Translations under genes and position numbers: made by a program
The notes under the pieces: model-generated
What the model saw: only the letters and a program-made list of their open reading frames with translations
Told to the model about the DNA's origin: nothing
The model's database searches: none
Origin: a virus
Lineage: Duplodnaviria > Heunggongvirae > Uroviricota > Caudoviricetes
Direction: 5' to 3' (one strand)
Length of the DNA stretch: 20,518 nucleotides
Virus record (IMG/VR): IMGVR_UViG_2740892214_000001
Shown: piece after piece, positions 1,035 through 20,518 of the stretch
How positions within the stretch are numbered: position 1 is the first letter of the stretch
Layout: the number at the start of each line of letters is the position of its first letter

Positions 1035-1094
1035 TCGTCATGCTCCATAAACGACAAAACCGCCCGGAGGCGGTTTCACATAAAACATTTTGCA

Positions 1095-3425: not shown

Positions 3426-6400
3426 TACCGATATGCTCCACTTAACCGACCACCATCACGGGCCTGCTGTTGCATAAAGTCCGCTGCCGCTTTTTTCCCG
3501 AGGTCATAAACCACCTTCAGGGCAGCCGGACCTATCTGCCCGTTCGTGCCATCGTTATTGATCTCGATGTTGTACTGCGGGGCAAACATCGCCATACCTG
3601 AACCACCAATATCCGCCACAACCCCCAGCTTACCGTCAGCACCACGACGCAGAGGCAGAATGGCTTCAGGCCCAGCTTCCCCCATCACACCTGCACCTTT
3701 TGCAAAAGCAAAAAACGTCGGACGGTTAACCACCGTGCCACTGTAGCGACTCAAATCAGCAGACTGATAAACACCACCATCAGCATTGGGCGTCACACTG
3801 GCAGTTGCTGCACTCCCCCAGCCAAACGCCGAACCAATCCCCTTAACTGCCTGCATCATGGACATCTGAGCCATGATTTTTGCCAGATCAGAAAGGAGCG
3901 AGGCGGTAAAAGATTTGAAGTTCAGTTTTCCGGTGGTACAGAATGTTGCCAGTGCATTACCTGCACTATTAAATGCCGCTGTAAGCATCTGCTCCGCAGT
4001 GCCTGCCGCATTATCCGCATCTGCCGTGAAATTCTGAAACGCCCGCATGGCACCGTTTTTCCAGTTACCCTGAGCAATTTCAAGCTGTTGCCAGTAACGG
4101 CGATTCTCATTCAGTTGCCTGTTCAGGCTCTCCGTCAGCGCCTGCTCGGCCTTTCTGTAGTCATCCGTGTTATATGTCCCTTTCTGCTCACTATCCCGCC
4201 TCAACTGCTCCAGCTGTTGCTGGTATTTCTGGCGAAGGCTCAGTTGTACCTGATATCGCTGCCGCTGCTGATCACCCATACCCACCGTGGCGATATCCAG
4301 GTCATGTTGCTGACGCTGAGCGCGCTCTTCTTCAGCCAGTTGACTGGTCAGCTGAATTGTTTTTTTCTTCAGATCGTTGAGTGCCGTCTGTTTCTGAAGC
4401 TCCTGCTGTTTTACATCCAGCAGCGTCAGTGCCTGAATCAGTTCATCTTTACGGGCCAGCACACTCTTTTCATCTGCCGTCAGTTTTTTCCCGTCCAGGT
4501 CGCTGATGCGCTGCTGCAGAGCCAGAAGCTGTTTATGCGCTTCTGTCATCCTGTCAGTGGCAATGCCTGCTGACTGTCTGGCAGCAGCAATCTGCCCTTC
4601 CACCTGTGCCTGTTGCTGGCTGTACTGCAGCAATAACCGGGTGGCCTCATCATTACGGGTTTCGCGTGTTTTTTTCTTACCGGATGCCAGGGCTTTCTCG
4701 TAACGTTCATTTTCACGTTGTATCGCCGCATCCCTGACAGCCTGATCGGCGTACTGCATGGCATTAATACGCGCAATTTCACGCTGATGTCGTGCTGCTT
4801 CCGTTTCATTCATCCGGTTCAGTGCAGCATTTTCAGCATTACGGCGTTTCTGTTGCTCCTGATAATTCCGCTCTGCCTGCTCTTTTGCATCCTGCAAATC
4901 CTTCTGGCGTTTTTTCTCCTGAAGCTCGTTAAGACGCTGCTGATCGTATTCAACCTGAGAAGATGATGCCGTCCAGGGGAGTCTTTTCGCCCGCGATACT
5001 TTCTCCTGCAAAGTGGCAATCTGCGCATCCAGCGAATCTTCACGACCAATATTCATGGCCGCATCCCAGAACTGCTTCCACCAGTCAGACAAGGTTTGCA
5101 GCGTACTACCCAGCGCATTGAGGTTATTATCAATATCCGCAGTACGCCGACCGGTTTCCTCTGCCAGTGCAAACATGGCTATCCGTGCCGCATCACTGGA
5201 GCGCCCCTGCTCTCCAAGGACGCGTATCTGCTCAAGCTGAGTGGCAGTAAGAAAATGCAGCTCATTGTCCAGAGCCTTCGCGGCATTTACAGGATCATCC
5301 TTCAGCCGCTTAAACTGATTTATGGTATCGCTGATCGACTGGCCAACCGATCGCTCCATCTGTGCGGCAGCTCTCGCCACCATACCGATATCGTTTCCAC
5401 GAAATGCACCACTCCCCACCACCTGAGCCAGCGCACCGGCTGCAGCATGTTGCGTGATACCATTCCCGGAAATAGCACGACTGAGCGTCCACAGCTGCCC
5501 GGCAGTGACTCCGGCATAATGCCCCGTCAGCGACAGCTGGCGGTTAAATTCTTCCCCCTCCTTCTGACCGTCATACCAGGCTTTACCCAGACCATAGACG
5601 GCCGCGGTAATACCGCCAATAACCCCGCCCAGCATCATGCCTTTCGGTGACATCAGTGTGTCTATCCATCCGGCACGGTTAGCCAGCGTTATCCCGGATC
5701 CCCTCAGCGCCCCTAAATTGCCGCGGGCCAGTTCACCTATCAGAACGCCTATCTCCTGGCGGGCCGCTGCACTTTTCAGACCCAGCGAATGCGTGGCTTT
5801 TCCTGCCCGCTCCATTTTGCGGATATACACTTCTGCAGCACTGCTTACCCCCAGCTGGGCAGCCCTGGCACGAAGCAACTCAGAAGAAGAAAGATTCTGG
5901 CGGGTTGCCTGCTCTTTAAGCTGACGGATAAACGCCACTTTCTGTCGGGTAGCCTCTGCCTCAGCCTGCGTAAGAACACGGGTTTTCGCCGTAACCTCAG
6001 AAATCAGCGCCAGATAATCCTGCTGACCAATCCCGCCACTGTTTCTGGCCTGTCGGATCTGCTGCTGAATACGCTGTAACTCCTGCAACCCCGCACTGGC
6101 CTGTTTCACACTGTCAATCTGACGATAAAACGCGGCAGCCGCTTTATCCTGAGCCTCCGCCAGAGCCATGGCCTGTGCCTGTTCCTCGCGCATTTTCTGG
6201 CTCAGTGCCTCCATACGCTGGCGGGTTTGCTCCACCTCGCGGGCCATGCGTTCATGAGCCTGTGCGCTCTTCTCCACCGTCTGCGCATGGACGGATGCGG
6301 CTGTTGCAGCCGAAGAAGCCGCCTGCATTGTCTGCCGGGCGGCCTGAGTCTGACGCTCCATAAAACGCTGCATACGGGCAGAAGACCGTTCTGCATCGCT

Positions 6401-6499: not shown

Positions 6500-7195
6500 A
6501 ACGCACACCTCCGGAAATACCTTCCCCAAGATGCATCAGTTCTTCGTCCGTTCGCTCCGGTATCCCGTTCTCTTCCGGTAAAAGGCTGAAATCAGCCACC
6601 GCAGCATCACTGCTGCCGGACACCATTCTCACGATCAATGCCTTCAGCGAGGCAAACTGCGCATCCATCCACACATCACTGAAGCTCTGCATCCGGAAAT
6701 AATCGCCCCACTCACCAAGCTCAGTGGCCGACATTTCCGACAGCATCCGCCGCCAGTCTGCCCGCCGGAACTCCCGGGCAAGCCGCATGACAAACTGCAT
6801 TTCCCGCGTCAGGACTTTTCCGGCGTCAGCACCTCATGCTCCAAATCCCCGGCATTCTCAATGGCTCCCATACCGCTCAGCGACAGAACCATCTCCGCCC
6901 CCGCTCCCAGGGCATCATACGACCATGTTGTAATAACGGATGCGCAAAGCGTCTCAACATCCTGAGACTGTTCCGCATTCCACAGTGAGCGGGAAACTAG
7001 CCAGGCATTGATATCCATCCCCATCCGCAGAAAAGCAATCTGTCGTTCAGCCTCCGGCAGTTCTCCCTCTTCGGCATCAAACTTTGCCGTTCGCTGCTGA
7101 ACAAACGCCAGATATTCAATTCTCTGCAGCCCGGACAGCTCACTGAGCACCACGGACTGCTTTTCATAATTAAACGTGCCCTGTTTCAGAAACAT
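6471..7195 (-). CDS. T: Tail assembly chaperone GT fusion made by programmed -1 ribosomal frameshift near the end of G (T segment 6471..about 6818)
   Basis: ORF 6471..6800 (REFRRADWRRMLSEMSATELGEWG...GISGGVRYG) matches lambda gpT and lies in the -1 frame relative to G. The T frame is open only from 6833 downward and G stops at 6809, so the shift must occur in that interval; the only slippery candidate is GGAAAAG at 6815..6821. Confidence 0.6.
6809..7195 (-). CDS. G: Tail assembly chaperone G
   Basis: MFLKQGTFNYEKQSVVLSELSGLQRIEYLA resembles lambda gpG (MFLK...LSELSALQRIEHLA). Start at second ATG of an ATGATG pair (alternative 7198); GGTGGAG SD just upstream. Track ORF N-terminal extension overlaps the upstream hairpin and is rejected. 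Confidence 0.85.
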   Translation of the reverse strand: MFLKQGTFNYEKQSVVLSELSGLQRIEYLAFVQQRTAKFDAEEGELPEAERQIAFLRMGMDINAWLVSRSLWNAEQSQDVETLCASVITTWSYDALGAGAEMVLSLSGMGAIENAGDLEHEVLTPEKS

Positions 7196-7211
7196 CATGT
7201 TCTCCACCTGC

Positions 7212-7235
7212 AAAAAAGCCCCGGATAATCGGGGC
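7212..7235 (-). terminator. Intrinsic terminator-like hairpin between V and G (minus strand)
   Basis: Minus strand reads GCCCCG-AUUAUC-CGGGGC followed by UUUUUUG, 6-bp GC stem; lies between V stop (7256) and the G SD/ATG. Confidence 0.5.
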
Positions 7236-7255
7236 AAATGATGAGTATCGTCCTG

Positions 7256-7999
7256 TTAACCTGCGGCGCTGACGGCCACCGTAGCCACTGCCACAAAATC
7301 GCCGTCAGAAGTCATGCCCACAATGCTGACACTGCCCTGCTTCACGCCTTTCACCGTGGCCACAAGCCCGTTCAGGGTCACCGTGGCAGTCTGTGGATCT
7401 GTCGAATGCACACTGATCGCTTTGTCACTGGCTCCGTCAGGTTTTACTGTAAAGGTCAGCGTGGTGGTTGCTCCCACTTTTACACTGGCAGATGCCGGTG
7501 CCACCGTCAGCCCGGTAACGCCCACGGTTTCAGTGCCTTCTTCTGCCAGATACGGACGCCCCACACCGCTGATTTTCACTGTGCGGGTCATCACGTCTTT
7601 TGAGGCAATGGTTTTACCCAGTGAACTCAGCCAGCCACGGAAAACATCAACAGTACCGTTGGGATATTTGATACGAAACGCGCAGACTTCACCGGAGTCG
7701 AACAACTGAACCAGTTTTTTCTGCCCGCTGTCACCCGGACGCCAGGCCAGCGTCGCCGAAGTATCACCGACGGATTTCTGCCCCTGGGTTGTCGTTTTCC
7801 AGTCTGCATCTTCATCATCGAGATAAGTGTCATCTTCTGCATCAGCGGTCATTTCGCCAGGCTGCAGATCCTTCACCATCGCAAGACGCAGCCAGTCAGT
7901 GTCCGATAAAGGGTTCGCAAACGCATCGCCCTTGCCGGTGTACATCCAGAACGTCGTTCCCGCACCTTTCGTTTTTGCCAGTGGATTTGGTGTGGTCAT
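7256..7999 (-). CDS. V: Major tail (tube) protein V with C-terminal Ig-like region
   Basis: Start trimmed to ATG 7997..7999 (MTTPNPLAKTKGAGTTFW) with AAGGAGGTG SD; strong match to lambda gpV (..GDTS.TLAW.PG...NGTVDVFRGW.SS.GK..). C-terminal ~90 aa Thr/Val/Ser-rich, as in the lambda gpV Ig-like extension. Confidence 0.9.
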   Translation of the reverse strand: MTTPNPLAKTKGAGTTFWMYTGKGDAFANPLSDTDWLRLAMVKDLQPGEMTADAEDDTYLDDEDADWKTTTQGQKSVGDTSATLAWRPGDSGQKKLVQLFDSGEVCAFRIKYPNGTVDVFRGWLSSLGKTIASKDVMTRTVKISGVGRPYLAEEGTETVGVTGLTVAPASASVKVGATTTLTFTVKPDGASDKAISVHSTDPQTATVTLNGLVATVKGVKQGSVSIVGMTSDGDFVAVATVAVSAAG

Positions 8000-8009
8000 T
8001 GCCACCTCC

Positions 8010-8411
8010 TTAATTCGTGTACGTGATCTGGTACGTGATTTCCGCCATCGCCCAGGTGGCCATCTCATTATCACGTTGATAGTTAAAACCGAGTGGGATC
8101 AGGGTGTCGATGAGTCCGGAAAGTGCCGGTACATCATTCAGGGCCGGGAAAATGGTGCTCTCCATCCACATATCCAGCTCTGAATCCGGTGCCTGTGCCC
8201 GGATGAAGACGGCAATATGCAGAACAGCCTGCCAGTCATCTTCATCCGTCATTTTTCCGGTGTACTGAGCATCACTCAGCCACACCGCCACGGCAGGCAG
8301 TTCCTGCGCATCAATAAATGCCGGAAGCCCGTCAAAAAATGTGGCGCTGTCTCCACACTGTTCCCGAAGGCGTGCCAGTACGGCCTGGCGGATTTGTGTA
8401 TGTCGGTTCAT
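8010..8411 (-). CDS. U: Tail terminator protein U
   Basis: MNRHTQIRQAVLARL...ATFFDG.PA..D....PAVAV.L..A.YTG...D.D.WQA.LHI.VF..AQ.PDSELD.WMES matches lambda gpU. Start chosen at ATG 8409..8411, which overlaps the Z stop (ATGA); alternative start 8423. Confidence 0.85.
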   Translation of the reverse strand: MNRHTQIRQAVLARLREQCGDSATFFDGLPAFIDAQELPAVAVWLSDAQYTGKMTDEDDWQAVLHIAVFIRAQAPDSELDMWMESTIFPALNDVPALSGLIDTLIPLGFNYQRDNEMATWAMAEITYQITYTN

Positions 8412-8986
8412 CGGGTCAGCCATAACCTCAGTTGTTGTTTCAGTGCATACCCCAGCTGTTTCGGCATTTCCGCAGCAATGATGCGATCGCGGGCATCTTC
8501 AAATGCCTGTGTCAGCGGTCCGGACAGCGGGATTTTCACCACATCAATGGGGTAACGATTTTTGCCATCAATACGCCGCATCACATGCCAGCGACCATTC
8601 GCCAGTTGCTGAATAAACGCATCCCGGAAAAGATATTTACCCACCTTCAGCACGCTGCCACGGTACTGCAGTTTTCCACCACGCCGGGCCAGTCTGACCC
8701 GGGCTGTCCCCAGCTTAATGGCGGGCAGATTGCCCCGGTTAACGCGGATCCTGGCCGTCATTTTTCCTGACGGACTGGCTTTAAACACCCGGACACGCTG
8801 ACGTACCAGTTTCAGGGGGATCCCTTTCACCTGGTTATCTCCCGCAACGGTATTCCCGGCAACCTGCCGGGTGGCAACCGAGACCGCTTTCTGTGCCACA
8901 CGGTTTATCGCCCATGCGCTGGCCTGTGGCACCATACGGGTATCAAGGCTGTTCAGATTGCGGATGGCATTCTCAAGCCCCTTCAT
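8408..8986 (-). CDS. Z: Minor tail protein Z (tail completion)
   Basis: 192-aa ORF, same length as I recall for lambda gpZ, in the conserved position between the head-completion genes and U. The assignment rests on length and synteny; I did not align it residue by residue against lambda Z. Confidence 0.75.
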   Translation of the reverse strand: MKGLENAIRNLNSLDTRMVPQASAWAINRVAQKAVSVATRQVAGNTVAGDNQVKGIPLKLVRQRVRVFKASPSGKMTARIRVNRGNLPAIKLGTARVRLARRGGKLQYRGSVLKVGKYLFRDAFIQQLANGRWHVMRRIDGKNRYPIDVVKIPLSGPLTQAFEDARDRIIAAEMPKQLGYALKQQLRLWLTR

Positions 8987-8997
8987 CCCACACCTCT

Positions 8998-9273
8998 TTA
9001 CTCAATAAAGATCATTGGCTTACCGTTAAAGCGTTCATGCCGTGTGACCGTCCATTGTTGTCCGTCATAAACAACGCGATCCCCGCGCCGTGGGCGGTAT
9101 CCCGAAGAAAACACCACCAGAGAGACCGCAGGTCCGGACAGAGCATTCAGCTCTGCCAGTGTTTCTCCCGGGATCACGGTCATATCGACATCATTAATCG
9201 AGGCTGTCTTTCCCATCTTTCTGACCGTGATAGCATCCATACGCGCTGCCAGCCGGGAAAAGGGATCAGACAT
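8998..9273 (-). CDS. Small head-tail joining / head completion protein (gpFII-like), function inferred
   Basis: 91-aa ORF immediately upstream of Z; C-terminal RRGDRVVYDGQQWTV resembles the RRGDTLTIGEENFWV segment of lambda gpFII; position matches FII. Confidence 0.5.
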   Translation of the reverse strand: MSDPFSRLAARMDAITVRKMGKTASINDVDMTVIPGETLAELNALSGPAVSLVVFSSGYRPRRGDRVVYDGQQWTVTRHERFNGKPMIFIE

Positions 9274-9589
9274 TGAGTTTTACCGGCACTTCTTCTGCAC
9301 TGGTTCCGGCATCTGCCCAGACAACCCCGACCAGCGGATCAGAGCCGCTGTTAGTCAGCTGAACTTTTCCGGACTTCAGATAAACCTTCTTACCCGTTTT
9401 CATGTCATCCGTTTTCAGCTTAGGCAGCATAAACACACCTTCGGTCATACCGTCGCCTGTTTCACCTTGTGGAATATCGGTCAGCGCCACCGCAAAAACA
9501 TCACCCACCTGCACCAGATCTCCGCTGCTGATGGCTGCACTGGCAACAATCGCCACCGTTTTTCCTTCTTCTACAAAATTCTTTGCCAT
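9266..9589 (-). CDS. Small head-associated protein of unknown function (possible DUF2190-like head decoration/completion protein)
   Basis: Start trimmed to ATG 9587..9589 (MAKNFVEEGKT) with GGAG 6 nt upstream; 107 aa, Gly/Val-rich; lies between the major capsid gene and the FII-like gene. Family assignment is from memory and unverified. Confidence 0.45.
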   Translation of the reverse strand: MAKNFVEEGKTVAIVASAAISSGDLVQVGDVFAVALTDIPQGETGDGMTEGVFMLPKLKTDDMKTGKKVYLKSGKVQLTNSGSDPLVGVVWADAGTSAEEVPVKLNV

Positions 9590-9632
9590 AACTGTCTCCA
9601 CACAGCCCCGTTCAGGGGCTGATTTCAGGTAC

Positions 9633-9651
9633 AAAAAAAGCCCTTACGGGC
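9633..9651 (-). terminator. Intrinsic terminator immediately downstream of the major capsid gene (minus strand)
   Basis: Minus strand reads GCCC-GUAA-GGGC (GNRA tetraloop hairpin) followed by UUUUUUUGU, about 25 nt after the capsid gene stop. A second hairpin (CAGCCCC-UGAAC-GGGGCUG, 9603..9621) follows just before the next SD. Confidence 0.55.
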
Positions 9652-9675
9652 CATCAGAGTTGTTGTCTGCGATGT

Positions 9676-11634
9676 TTACGCCGTACATTTCACCAGACCG
9701 CGGTGATCAACTGGCGCGACACCGGCGTCAATACGCACTTTCGTTGTCACGCCATCCACACTGAAGCCCTCCATCTGATCAATATATGGCGTATCCACAC
9801 CGTTGAGATAAGCCACTTCAATCGTATCGGAGCCTTTTGACGCAGCCAGGTAGAAGGTGGTCTGGCTGTTATCATCAAGACGAGGCTCTGCAATAACGGT
9901 CGCAAAATCTTTCACCGGGTTAATAATACCGGCGTTAATGTCAGCCCCCTTGACACTTGAGGAGCGAATGACCTGGTTAGCAACAGACTCCATCGCCGTC
10001 GGTACCAGTACGAACGCAGGACGAATATTCAGATGACGCTCCCCCTCTTTCTGAACACGCATCAACTGGCGGGCTTTATCCAGCGATGCCACGTCCATTG
10101 CAGCGTCCTCCAGTACGTTTGCATGTTTCGCTTTATCGAACAGACTTACATTATCTGTGGAGATTTTCGGGTTAGACGTCAGAATGGCATAAACCAGATC
10201 GGCAATAGTGGATTTCGCCGCACGGCCCAGCTTCATCGGGACATCGGTCAGCATATTCAGATCATCATTGATAATGGCCTGACGGGTGATACTGAACAGC
10301 TCGCCATAGGTCGCCAGTGCAATAGTGGCCTGTTTATCTCCGGTGGTGACGTATTTATATTCCGCCCCTTCACGCACCTGACGCAGAGCACTGAAGCCCC
10401 CCATACCCACGCGATGGGCAATTTTAAAATCAGACAACTGACCTTTCCGCGTCCACTGTTCATAGGTTTCAGGGGCATCCTCCCAGCCCTGCAGAATGGC
10501 TTTGTTCGCAACATCCAGCAGAATATTACCGAAGTCAGACGTACTGTGTGTGAACGCCGCACCGACCATCTGCATCGGGTTATAACCGGAAACCCCAATA
10601 CCCCGTTCAGTCAGTGACATACGGGCATATTCACGCAGGGTCATCCCGTTGTAGACATTATCACGTTCGGTTTTTTCAAATCCGGCACGCGCCATCAGCG
10701 CCTGGCGGATCCCGTCCCCCACAAAATTACCGTTACCGGCATAAATATGAGCCGGGGTATTTTTATTGGATGGCGTGGACTCGCGCCCCATCTCGTTCAA
10801 CAGCTTTTCGCGGGCCTGCTCCAGCGAACATTCAGGATCGGCAAGACACTGAGCCTGCAGCGTCTGATAACGCCCGCCAAACATGGCAAACAGATCATTA
10901 ATACCGTTTACACGCGCTTTTTGCTCTGCCAGTACCTGCGCACGGATACTGTTTTCATCCACCACGGGTGCTGCTGCCTGCACTGGCGTCCGGGAGGCTG
11001 CAGGTTCATTATCCTGTACGCGTGGAGCACTGTTGCGTGGCGGAGTAATCATGTTTCGAATGGATTCCGGCATCTTTTTAAATTCCTCTGTACGTTTTGA
11101 CTGAATACATGCCATTGCCTTAACGGCTGGCGTCACCTGATCAGCAAATCCATGTGCCAGACATTCGGCACCGGACATCCAGGTCTCATCCGCCAGCATG
11201 GCAGCAATTTCATCGGTGGTTTTCCCGGTTTTCTGTGCATAAGCGGGTAACAGAACCGCCTCAACCTTATCGAGCAGGTCGGCATAGGTGCGCATGTCCT
11301 CCGCATCACCGCCCGTAAAGCCAAATGGTTTATGAATCATCATGAAGGTGTTTTCCGGCATAATGACCGGTTTTCCCACCATCGCAATGACCGACGCCAT
11401 TGACGCCGCCACACCGTCGACATAAACGGTAATGGACGCACCATGTGTTTTCAGCGCATTAAAAATGGCGATGCCTTCAAAGACATCGCCACCCGGTGAA
11501 TTGATATGGAGATTAATGTGGGTGATATCGCCCAGTGCATTCAGATCACTGATAAACTGCTTCGCTGTAACACCCCAGAAACCAATCTCGTCATAAATAT
11601 AAATATCCGCGTCACTCTGGTGACCAGCCTGCAT
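9676..11634 (-). CDS. Fused prohead protease (ClpP/S14-like) - linker/scaffold - HK97-fold major capsid protein (about 652 aa)
   Basis: Start trimmed to ATG 11632..11634 (MQAGHQSDADIYIYDEIGFWG), the first ATG after the portal stop. N-terminal domain has ClpP-like motifs (IYIYDEIG, INSPGGDV, MIHKP); a Pro/Ala/Gln-rich linker follows; the C-terminal ~330 aa resemble HK97-type major capsid proteins. Confidence 0.8.
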   Translation of the reverse strand: MQAGHQSDADIYIYDEIGFWGVTAKQFISDLNALGDITHINLHINSPGGDVFEGIAIFNALKTHGASITVYVDGVAASMASVIAMVGKPVIMPENTFMMIHKPFGFTGGDAEDMRTYADLLDKVEAVLLPAYAQKTGKTTDEIAAMLADETWMSGAECLAHGFADQVTPAVKAMACIQSKRTEEFKKMPESIRNMITPPRNSAPRVQDNEPAASRTPVQAAAPVVDENSIRAQVLAEQKARVNGINDLFAMFGGRYQTLQAQCLADPECSLEQAREKLLNEMGRESTPSNKNTPAHIYAGNGNFVGDGIRQALMARAGFEKTERDNVYNGMTLREYARMSLTERGIGVSGYNPMQMVGAAFTHSTSDFGNILLDVANKAILQGWEDAPETYEQWTRKGQLSDFKIAHRVGMGGFSALRQVREGAEYKYVTTGDKQATIALATYGELFSITRQAIINDDLNMLTDVPMKLGRAAKSTIADLVYAILTSNPKISTDNVSLFDKAKHANVLEDAAMDVASLDKARQLMRVQKEGERHLNIRPAFVLVPTAMESVANQVIRSSSVKGADINAGIINPVKDFATVIAEPRLDDNSQTTFYLAASKGSDTIEVAYLNGVDTPYIDQMEGFSVDGVTTKVRIDAGVAPVDHRGLVKCTA

Positions 11635-16064: not shown

Positions 16065-16152
16065 CCACTGTAATATCAATCTATTACAGTAGTGGTGATG
16101 ACGAATGAAATTTCAAAAACTAGCCTTTTTCCGCGACGCTCCCGCCCCGTGG
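16065..16152 (-). other. Candidate cos site: cosN-like sequence (12-nt cohesive-end candidate GGGCGGGAGCGT on minus strand, plus 16136..16147) and cosB-like AT-rich region with a palindrome (16065..16095)
   Basis: Minus strand ACGGGGCGGGAGCGTCGCGG matches lambda cosN region ACGGGGCGGCGACCTCGCGG (as recalled) at 16 of 20 positions; followed by an AT-rich segment and a shared TTCGTCAT motif; distance to the terminase start is about 175 nt (lambda about 190). Confidence 0.55.
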
Positions 16153-18121: not shown

Positions 18122-18147
18122 AAATAAAAAGGCCACGCAACGTGGCC
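18122..18147 (-). terminator. Intrinsic terminator between the methyltransferase and the holin (minus strand); possible tR'-like element
   Basis: Perfect 7-bp stem GGCCACG-UUG-CGUGGCC followed on the minus strand by UUUUUAUUU; begins 8 nt after the methyltransferase stop. Confidence 0.6.
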
Positions 18148-19357: not shown

Positions 19358-19585
19358 TTACTGGCAGCGTCTGAATTTATTCCCGTACCCGCCGTTATCC
19401 TTCGCCAGCCCCGCCAGAACTAACTGAGTCAGTATTAACTGGCACCGGGCTTCGCTTACTCCGGTAGTTCTCGTCATCATGCGTGGCGTTACCCACTTGT
19501 CAGCAGGTAAGAAATGAAGGACTGCGGCGGCGGTTTCTGTCATATCTTGCTGTTTTAGCATGTCTTTTTCCCTTCTGGTTAACAT
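19358..19585 (-). CDS. Small hypothetical protein (67-75 aa) with HTH-like segment; possible DNA-binding regulator
   Basis: Segment TPRMMTRTTGVSEARCQLILTQLVLAGL looks like a helix-turn-helix; start ambiguous (19585, or 19561 with AAGGGA SD); lies upstream of the methyltransferase. Confidence 0.4.
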   Translation of the reverse strand: MLTRREKDMLKQQDMTETAAAVLHFLPADKWVTPRMMTRTTGVSEARCQLILTQLVLAGLAKDNGGYGNKFRRCQ

Positions 19586-19683
19586 GACATACCAATAACT
19601 CTTGTCTAAAAAGCCAGCAAGATAAAAAGTCAGTATTCACGACCACCAGCGTGTTTACTGTACTGCACCAAGTTTACAGGTAC

Positions 19684-19705
19684 AAAAAACCCGCTCAGTG
19701 GCGGG
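19684..19705 (-). terminator. Intrinsic terminator downstream of the 207-aa cargo ORF (minus strand)
   Basis: Minus strand CCCGC-CACUGA-GCGGG followed by UUUUUUGU; about 130 nt after the ORF stop at 19838. Confidence 0.55.
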
Positions 19706-19837
19706 TTTAAGTTGTGTGGCGAAGTAACCACTCTTAACACACTAATAGCATTTTTGTTATAACACAAGTAGCTCATTCAGTATTTTTAGAATCTTGACTT
19801 TCTTAAGCACGGCGAACTCTGAATACCAAACATAAAA

Positions 19838-20461: not shown

Positions 20462-20518
20462 AATTTCCCCAAAACGTAACCATGTGTGAATAGATTTTGA
20501 GTAAGCAGGGTTGCAGCC

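Follow-up and report, generated by a model that had tools for sequence, protein, structure and literature searches.

Terminator-type hairpins after the capsid and tail-tube genes in a lambdoid late operon: probable read-through elements with a possible main effect on RNA ends and stability

Why would a late structural operon carry canonical transcription terminators between genes that must be transcribed together? The question is raised by a stretch of 20,518 nucleotides from a tailed phage (Caudoviricetes; IMG/VR record IMGVR_UViG_2740892214_000001), hereafter the window, in which a GC hairpin followed by a U-tract stands after the gene for the major tail protein V and after the gene for the major capsid protein. 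A sequence-only reading had proposed that partial termination at the two points sets the ratio of the major structural proteins to the chaperones and minor proteins encoded downstream. The two elements are indeed found on the coding strand at 7235..7212 (site 1) and 9651..9633 (site 2), and the proposed mechanism is plausible, but it is not the one best supported by the comparisons described below.

Nucleotide comparison showed that positions 6800..10000 are 98-99% identical to the coliphages phi458, Ayreon, mEp460 and cdtI. The late gene order recovered by Pfam and PHROG searches is lambda-like, with the genes of interest on the - strand: the DNA methylase gene and the holin and lysis genes are followed, further along, by those for the capsid fusion, the decoration protein, a Gifsy-2-family protein, Z, U, V and G, in keeping with the lambdoid arrangement of lysis genes, terminase, head and tail. 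The names of T, the tape-measure gene H and the distal tail genes were taken from the mEp460 annotation. The capsid gene (9676..11634, - strand) codes for a ClpP-protease/scaffold/major capsid fusion of 652 aa (PF00574 and PF25209; PHROG 133), while V (7256..7999, - strand) codes for a major tail tube protein of 247 aa (PF16461 Phage_TTP_12, 1.5e-66, and a Big_2 domain; major tail protein in mEp460), so that both gene identities assumed in the earlier reading are borne out. The genes that follow were described there as chaperones or minor proteins, which applies to the tail assembly chaperone gene G behind V (6809..7205 with its Shine-Dalgarno sequence, - strand; ORF 7198..6809; PF06894, 1.8e-39) but not to the capsid site, where the next gene encodes a head decoration or cement protein (9266..9599 with its Shine-Dalgarno sequence GGAG at 9599..9596, - strand; ATG at 9589, ORF 9589..9266; PF09956, 9e-21; PHROG 122 'head decoration'). 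The V stop and G start codons lie in the same frame with no other stop between them (7196..7258, - strand), and database proteins of 396 aa (P0004, P0006, P0007) in which the Pfam domains of both genes are joined resemble the products of a lost stop codon or of sequencing errors.

The head-tail block is tightly packed save for the three sizeable gaps seen, of 86 nt after the capsid gene, 57 nt after V and approximately 60 nt after the gene in the lambda gene I position, and each of the three contains a sense-strand hairpin with a U-rich tail. Site 1, GCCCCGauuaucCGGGGC plus U6 (7235..7212, - strand), begins 20 nt past the V stop codon (7258..7256). Its hairpin, GCCCCG-AUUAUC-CGGGGC (7218..7235), pairs 7235..7230 with 7223..7218 in six G-C pairs around a 6-nt loop (7229..7224), and the U6 tract (7212..7217) abuts the stem directly; none of 200 shuffled sequences folded as stably. 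The Shine-Dalgarno sequence GGAG (7205..7202) and the ATG (7198) of G come directly after the element. Sequestration of this Shine-Dalgarno sequence was considered and rejected, its pairing with the flanks of site 1 being weak and no better than in shuffles (z = -0.82).

Site 2, GCCCguaaGGGC plus U7 (9651..9633, - strand), begins 24 nt past the stop codon of the capsid fusion (9678..9676). The hairpin (hp1, 9640..9651) is composed of GCCC (9651..9648), a GNRA-type GUAA loop (9647..9644) and GGGC (9643..9640), giving four G-C pairs to which a G9652-U9639 pair may be added, and its U7 tract (9633..9639) abuts the stem. The fold free energies bear out the hairpins that had been read from the letters, at -13.0 kcal/mol for site 1 and -8.4 kcal/mol for site 2, the latter ranging from -6.7 to -8.4 kcal/mol with four to five pairs. 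That the U-tract directly precedes the next Shine-Dalgarno sequence, as had also been stated, holds for site 1 but not for site 2, where a single-stranded spacer, GUACCUGAAAU (9622..9632, - strand; conserved columns in alignment A2), is followed by a second hairpin (hp2), CAGCCCCugaacGGGGCUG (9603..9621, - strand; CAGCCCC-UGAAC-GGGGCUG), located between the U-tract and the Shine-Dalgarno sequence of the decoration gene. Hairpin hp2 lacks a U-tract and is more stable than hp1 (-13.9 kcal/mol; as-stable shuffles 0/200). With arms, GCCCC/GGGGC, that repeat those of hp1, it could alternatively cross-pair with that hairpin. The spacer was discarded as a candidate promoter, since inspection revealed no acceptable -10/-35 pair. 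Rfam covariance models gave no match at site 1 or site 2, even at E-values up to 5.

A d'Aubenton-Carafa-type score for hairpin and U-tract was computed along both strands of the whole window. Eight sites score above 0, seven of them on the - strand, compared with a mean of 0.19 sites above 0 and 0.01 sites above 20 in 100 dinucleotide-preserving shuffles, and among them site 2 ranks second (27.9) and site 1 third (23.7). A simple consensus terminator scan also reports both. Each thus has the G+C stem, the abutting U-tract, the location in an untranslated gap in the sense direction and the above-random score by which intrinsic terminators are recognised, and since no U-tract follows either element on the opposite strand, both would act in the direction of late transcription only.

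The highest score in the window, 30.0, belongs to a terminator between the DNA methylase and holin genes (GGCCACGuugCGUGGCC plus UUUUUAUUU; 18131..18147, - strand), which may close a moron or safeguard the lysis genes. Further terminators occur downstream of a gene for a WYL-domain protein (CCCGCcacugaGCGGG plus U6; 19690..19705, - strand; 14.8) and upstream of the terminase genes (16092..16065, - strand; 10.4), and an in-operon hairpin, CCGCCuccgGGCGG plus UUUUGUCGUUU (1060..1073, - strand; 19.3), separates the tail assembly gene in the lambda gene I position from the J-like host-specificity gene, both named after mEp460. The protease part of the capsid-fusion ORF also includes a hairpin that runs into a U-rich tail (UGGCGAUGUCUUUGAAGGCAUCGCCA plus UUUUUAAU; 11466..11491, - strand; 17.1).

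The upstream terminators bear on the state of the polymerase that reaches the capsid gene. Between 18131 and the capsid gene, the - strand has no predicted sigma-70-like promoter, and with three terminators upstream the polymerase transcribing this gene would already have ignored such signals. A Q-like 'late gene regulator' is encoded by the close relative mEp460. In the window, the ORF located where Q would be expected codes for the WYL-domain protein instead, and Q would therefore lie beyond position 20518. Q-modified polymerase resists hairpin-dependent termination, and processive antitermination suppresses such termination in general. The passage of upstream terminators scoring 30.0, 14.8 and 10.4, the lack of a predicted promoter in between and the Q-type regulator of relatives together suggest that the polymerase arriving at both sites is probably antiterminated.

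This affects the proposal that the hairpins are leaky terminators which release a substantial fraction of the polymerases during lytic growth, lowering transcription downstream of the capsid and V genes. Canonical hairpins with U6 and U7 tracts and high scores, situated in untranslated gaps in the sense direction after genes for abundant proteins and conserved in hundreds of prophages, are what such attenuation would call for, and the short stems of 4-6 bp fit weak, leaky termination. The U-tract is moreover strictly conserved at the capsid site and, at the V site, in the E. coli clades. Set against this, the stronger terminators upstream have to be read through, which implies processive antitermination, and a comparable hairpin stands behind a tail assembly gene (1073..1060). 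Together with the evidence from relatives given below, these points make a substantial release of polymerase unlikely as the main role of the two sites, although it retains an appreciable probability. For T7 and LUZ7, inefficient terminators have been cited as a means of balancing expression (PMC9163698), which provides attenuation with precedents.

The same distribution of signals could alternatively point to fail-safe insulation in the lysogen, in which the terminators stop unmodified polymerases that leak through or start from stray or moron promoters and are ignored by the antiterminated polymerase. The concentration of scoring terminators in the sense direction of the late operon (7/8), their spacing along it and the position of the strongest one immediately before the holin gene and after the methylase moron agree with this role, which would also explain why U-tracts are kept although the late polymerase should ignore them. 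Stray expression of capsid and tail proteins is not obviously harmful, however, a scan for promoters within the structural region turned up no candidate ahead of either site, and insulation leaves unexplained both the placement after genes for abundant proteins and the U-less hairpins of relatives. It is accordingly given only a small probability.

The V site was compared across approximately 250 loci from viral contigs, eight from genomes, and phage records. A scan of the genome collection with the V alignment contributed only the eight loci, so the wider diversity derives from the phage records and the viral-contig scans, which included additional ones seeded with diverged V and capsid proteins. 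Among the approximately 250 close relatives, changes at both sites are almost confined to the loops. The clade of the window (V at least 94% identical) always has GCCCCG..CGGGGC followed by T5-T7, and the loop accounts for nearly all variation. In a second E. coli clade (V 85% identical), the flanks of which are not alignable, the site reads ACCCCGG-UAUG-CCGGGGU plus U6, the outer stem pair having changed from G-C to A-U. Salmonella clades (V 67-70% identical) keep the stem, GCCCCG(n5)CGGGGC, followed by a tail, AUCUUC..., with no usable U-tract. Gifsy-1 has a slightly different stem, GCCCCGG/CCGGGGC, and a weak U-tract (UUCUAUGG), the site of a Citrobacter prophage reads UUUGCGGG, and the tail in N15, UUCCCCCC, includes no usable U-tract. 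The stem GCCCCG/CGGGGC is thus kept at 67-100% V identity, while the Salmonella, Gifsy-1, Citrobacter and N15 relatives keep a stem with a weak U-tract or none. No hairpin follows V in lambda, phi80, mEp043, an Stx2d phage or Vibrio phage K242, where the gaps measure 4-15 nt overall and 10-15 nt in the first four.

It is the hairpin and not the U-tract that, as far as these sequences indicate, outlives divergence at the V site; the U-tract appears specific to the E. coli clades and the element as a whole appears dispensable for a lambda-type tail operon. Neither the absence of the hairpin in lambda, phi80, mEp043 and the Stx2d phage nor the lack of a usable U-tract in Salmonella, Gifsy-1 and N15 is expected under attenuation. 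What is found at the V site, a hairpin at the 3' end of an abundant cistron that is kept regardless of the U-tract, is the pattern of an RNA stabiliser.

At the capsid site, a module of approximately 55 nt is common to all ClpP-capsid-fusion phages compared, the C-terminal part of their capsid proteins being 70-100% identical. It consists of hp1, (G)GCCC-GNNA-GGGC, then U6-8, the spacer (G/A)U(A/G)CCUGAAA(N)C, hp2, AGCCC(C)-loop-(G)GGGCU, and GGAG. The hp1 stem is invariant in 23 distinct relatives and T6-T8 is present in 46/46 distinct module sequences; the 7-bp stem of hp2 is nearly invariant, while its loop varies freely, in a dozen forms or more, among clades with capsids 70-100% identical. 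Conservation extends from hp1 to the Shine-Dalgarno sequence, and the stretch between the stop codon and hp1 is not alignable between clades. In phage L185 the hp2 stem has been replaced by CCGGCCCG/CGGGCCGG. RNAalifold recovers both hairpins of the module and scores no compensatory pairs, the stems being essentially invariant, so that the case for structure rests on the variable loops as against the fixed stems.

The hp1 half of the module, GGCCCGUAAGGGC-U6-GUGUCAUGAAAUCAG, also follows the lambda-E-type capsid gene in Salmonella phages, in which the next gene is unlike the decoration gene of the window; the hp1 cassette is therefore common to unrelated capsid genes. A fixed-gap pattern scan for the cassette recovered only this Salmonella variant, at nine loci. 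Hairpins of unrelated sequence occupy the same position between lambda E and FI (poor U-tract), in Gifsy-1, in Vibrio phage K242 and in the Sakai prophage Sp10. The last does not carry the GCCCGAAAGGGC-U7 module; its head module is a different one, in which the hairpin behind the protease/capsid gene lacks a U-tract, and Sp10 was on this account ruled out as a link between the public Sakai Term-seq data and the GCCCGAAAGGGC-U7 module. The ClpP-fusion clades always keep U6-8 at the capsid site, whereas the E-FI hairpins of lambda and N15 have poor U-tracts. In lambda, N15 and phi80, a hairpin with a perfect U7 lies between D and E.

Attenuation presupposes that the downstream gene is needed in smaller amounts than the upstream one, which is true of G relative to V. 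The proteins D and E of the lambda type are needed in about equal and very high copy numbers. Since both are abundant, attenuation between their genes would be counter-productive, and the decoration gene downstream of the capsid-site terminator and the D-E terminators of lambda, N15 and phi80 tend to speak against it. Translation initiation has reportedly been regarded as the main determinant of late-protein ratios in lambda (Sampson et al. 1988).

The occurrence of one cassette behind unrelated capsid genes raises a further alternative, that hairpin cassettes persist mainly as recombination points between gene modules, with little selected role in expression. Such joints would account for the presence of GGCCCGUAAGGGC plus U6-7, GU.. 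and UGAAAUCAG after the lambda-E-type gene of the Salmonella phages. They would likewise fit the mosaic boundary at 19705, where homology to mEp460, Ayreon and Stx2c phages begins exactly at the start of the hairpin (19690..19707), and the 15-nt tail TTTTTGTACCTG(A/T)AA shared by two different hairpins of the window (9623..9637 and 19674..19688, both - strand), for which 0 matches are expected by chance, a significance that is inflated by the pattern having been set after both sequences had been seen. Stems, U-tract and spacer that stay fixed while the loops vary are, on the other hand, a signature of structural selection, and the unrelated hairpins in the same position in lambda, N15, Gifsy-1, K242 and Sakai Sp10 argue for convergent function. 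A role chiefly as mosaic joints is hence considered the least probable of the readings, with very little chance of being correct.

The pattern as a whole is tentatively best accommodated, at slightly under even confidence, by elements that are mostly read through and that act mainly on RNA ends and stability. Both are genuine signals of the Rho-independent terminator type and would delimit the capsid and tail-tube cistrons at their 3' ends. The late operon would be transcribed by antiterminated RNA polymerase, most molecules of which would pass both sites during lytic growth. A minority of terminated transcripts, together with read-through transcripts cut in the intercistronic spacer, would then carry a terminal hairpin protecting the upstream cistron against 3'-to-5' exonucleolytic decay, and the capsid and tail-tube message would outlast the message downstream. 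At the capsid site, the succession of hp1 plus U7, a conserved A/U-rich spacer and hp2 would suit an endonucleolytic cut, after which hp1 would cap the capsid message at its 3' end and hp2 the decoration-gene message at its 5' end. Attenuation of transcription would be a small and secondary effect. Antitermination in this phage, the processing step and the stabilising effect are all inferred here.

Several features suggest such stabilisation, namely the hairpins beyond chance expectation in two of the three sizeable gaps with changes almost confined to the loops, the survival of the V hairpin without its U-tract, the presence of hairpins in N15 after the genes for its three most abundant virion proteins, and the conservation of hp1, spacer and hp2 across capsids that are only 70% identical. 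A stabilising role appears to fit more of this comparative pattern than attenuation does and is favoured for that reason. Two features stand against it. With four to five pairs, hp1 offers exonucleases little resistance, and the U7 tract, invariant in the 46 distinct sequences, would be superfluous in a pure stabiliser. The E. coli clades also keep U5-U7 at the V site. The conservation of the U-tracts suggests real selection for termination or for Hfq binding. Recent horizontal spread could also explain part of the conservation of the capsid module, since its stems are invariant and show no compensatory changes. Literature searches for the 3' termini of late lambda transcripts returned nothing usable.

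Neither site is new. The sister genome mEp460 (GenBank JQ182728.1), 98.5% identical over the region, annotates a 'rho-independent terminator' at 6334..6353 and at 8751..8774, which map exactly to site 2 and site 1, respectively; these are the same two elements in homologous positions with no structural difference. A third 'terminator' annotated in mEp460, inside gene T, corresponds to a hairpin of the window, GCAGCAgugaUGCUGC (6580..6597, - strand), that has no U-tract and no terminator score. The mEp043 record (JQ182734.1) includes the capsid-site terminator at 6294..6312, and like that of mEp460 it assigns terminators as annotation only, without a function. In N15 (AF064539.1), stem-loops described as 'putative rho-indep. 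transcription terminator' follow genes 7 (decoration), 8 (major head) and 13 (major tail). Late-operon hairpins after decoration, capsid and tail genes are therefore shared with N15 (all three) and lambda (D-E and E-FI), in sequences unrelated to those of the window. The N15 tail-gene hairpin and the E-FI hairpins of lambda and N15 differ from site 1 and site 2 in their poor or absent U-tracts, and lambda, unlike the window, has no hairpin after V. What the comparison adds is modestly new: the two-hairpin module, the occurrence of its terminator half at unrelated capsid genes, the loss of the U-tract in the Salmonella clades and the dispensability of the V hairpin for many lambdoid phages.

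Leaky internal terminators are known from lytic phages, in the form of T-phi after capsid gene 10 in T7 and the serial leaky terminators of phiX174. T7 T-phi resembles the capsid site in following a major capsid gene with obligatory read-through. The late genes of T7, phiX174 and LUZ7 are, in contrast to those considered here, not transcribed by a Q-modified, terminator-resistant host polymerase, and their partial termination has been measured. Intercistronic stabilising stem-loops, such as those of the malE-malF REP, Rhodobacter puf and E. coli pap systems, stand at the 3' end of a cistron needed in excess, act after endonucleolytic cleavage and need no U-tract. The U-less V hairpins of the Salmonella and N15 relatives match stabilisers of this type, from which the elements of the window differ in their perfect U-tracts and, in the case of hp1, a much shorter stem. 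If the hairpins tune the capsid and tail-tube messages, they would form part of the means by which a polycistronic operon of 15 kb yields copy numbers from hundreds to a handful, with relevance for phage engineering and for the prediction of expression from prophage sequences. The elements are ordinary in kind, annotated in sister genomes, and the underlying idea is long-standing. Late gene clusters bounded by predicted terminators have been described in SPP1 (PMC6316719).

A more specific role for the capsid-site element, as a horizontally mobile bipartite RNA cassette of hp1(GNRA)-U7, the spacer RUACCUGAAAY and hp2 that directs endonucleolytic processing of late RNA, has a slim probability. 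This processing could release from the 3' UTR a short RNA of the Hfq type. The C/A-rich 5' part, here CAGACAACAAC, is complementary to the G/U-rich seed of GcvB and differs from one phage clade to another, in contrast to the conserved terminator part. The proposed RNA would in this parallel the anti-sRNAs of EHEC prophages, for which a 'variable 5' end, conserved 3' end' has been described (PMC4104026). Anti-sRNAs of the AgvB/AsxR type themselves were ruled out as counterparts, as they map to the moron site downstream of PR' and not to capsid 3' UTRs; the screen that yielded them left out peaks within 100 bp of coding sequences. An sRNA of 193 nt, sRNA-17, has been reported in an mEp460-like prophage of E. 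coli K1 RS218 (PMC7719688). Elsewhere in the window, the sequence just upstream of the 19705 hairpin, CACACAAC, resembles the GcvB-target consensus CACAACA, and the Enterobacteria sRNA family STnc130 has an Rfam hit below threshold (19580..19716, + strand; 30.1 bits against a gathering threshold of 55, E = 0.54) that overlaps the 19705 terminator on the strand opposite to the late genes.
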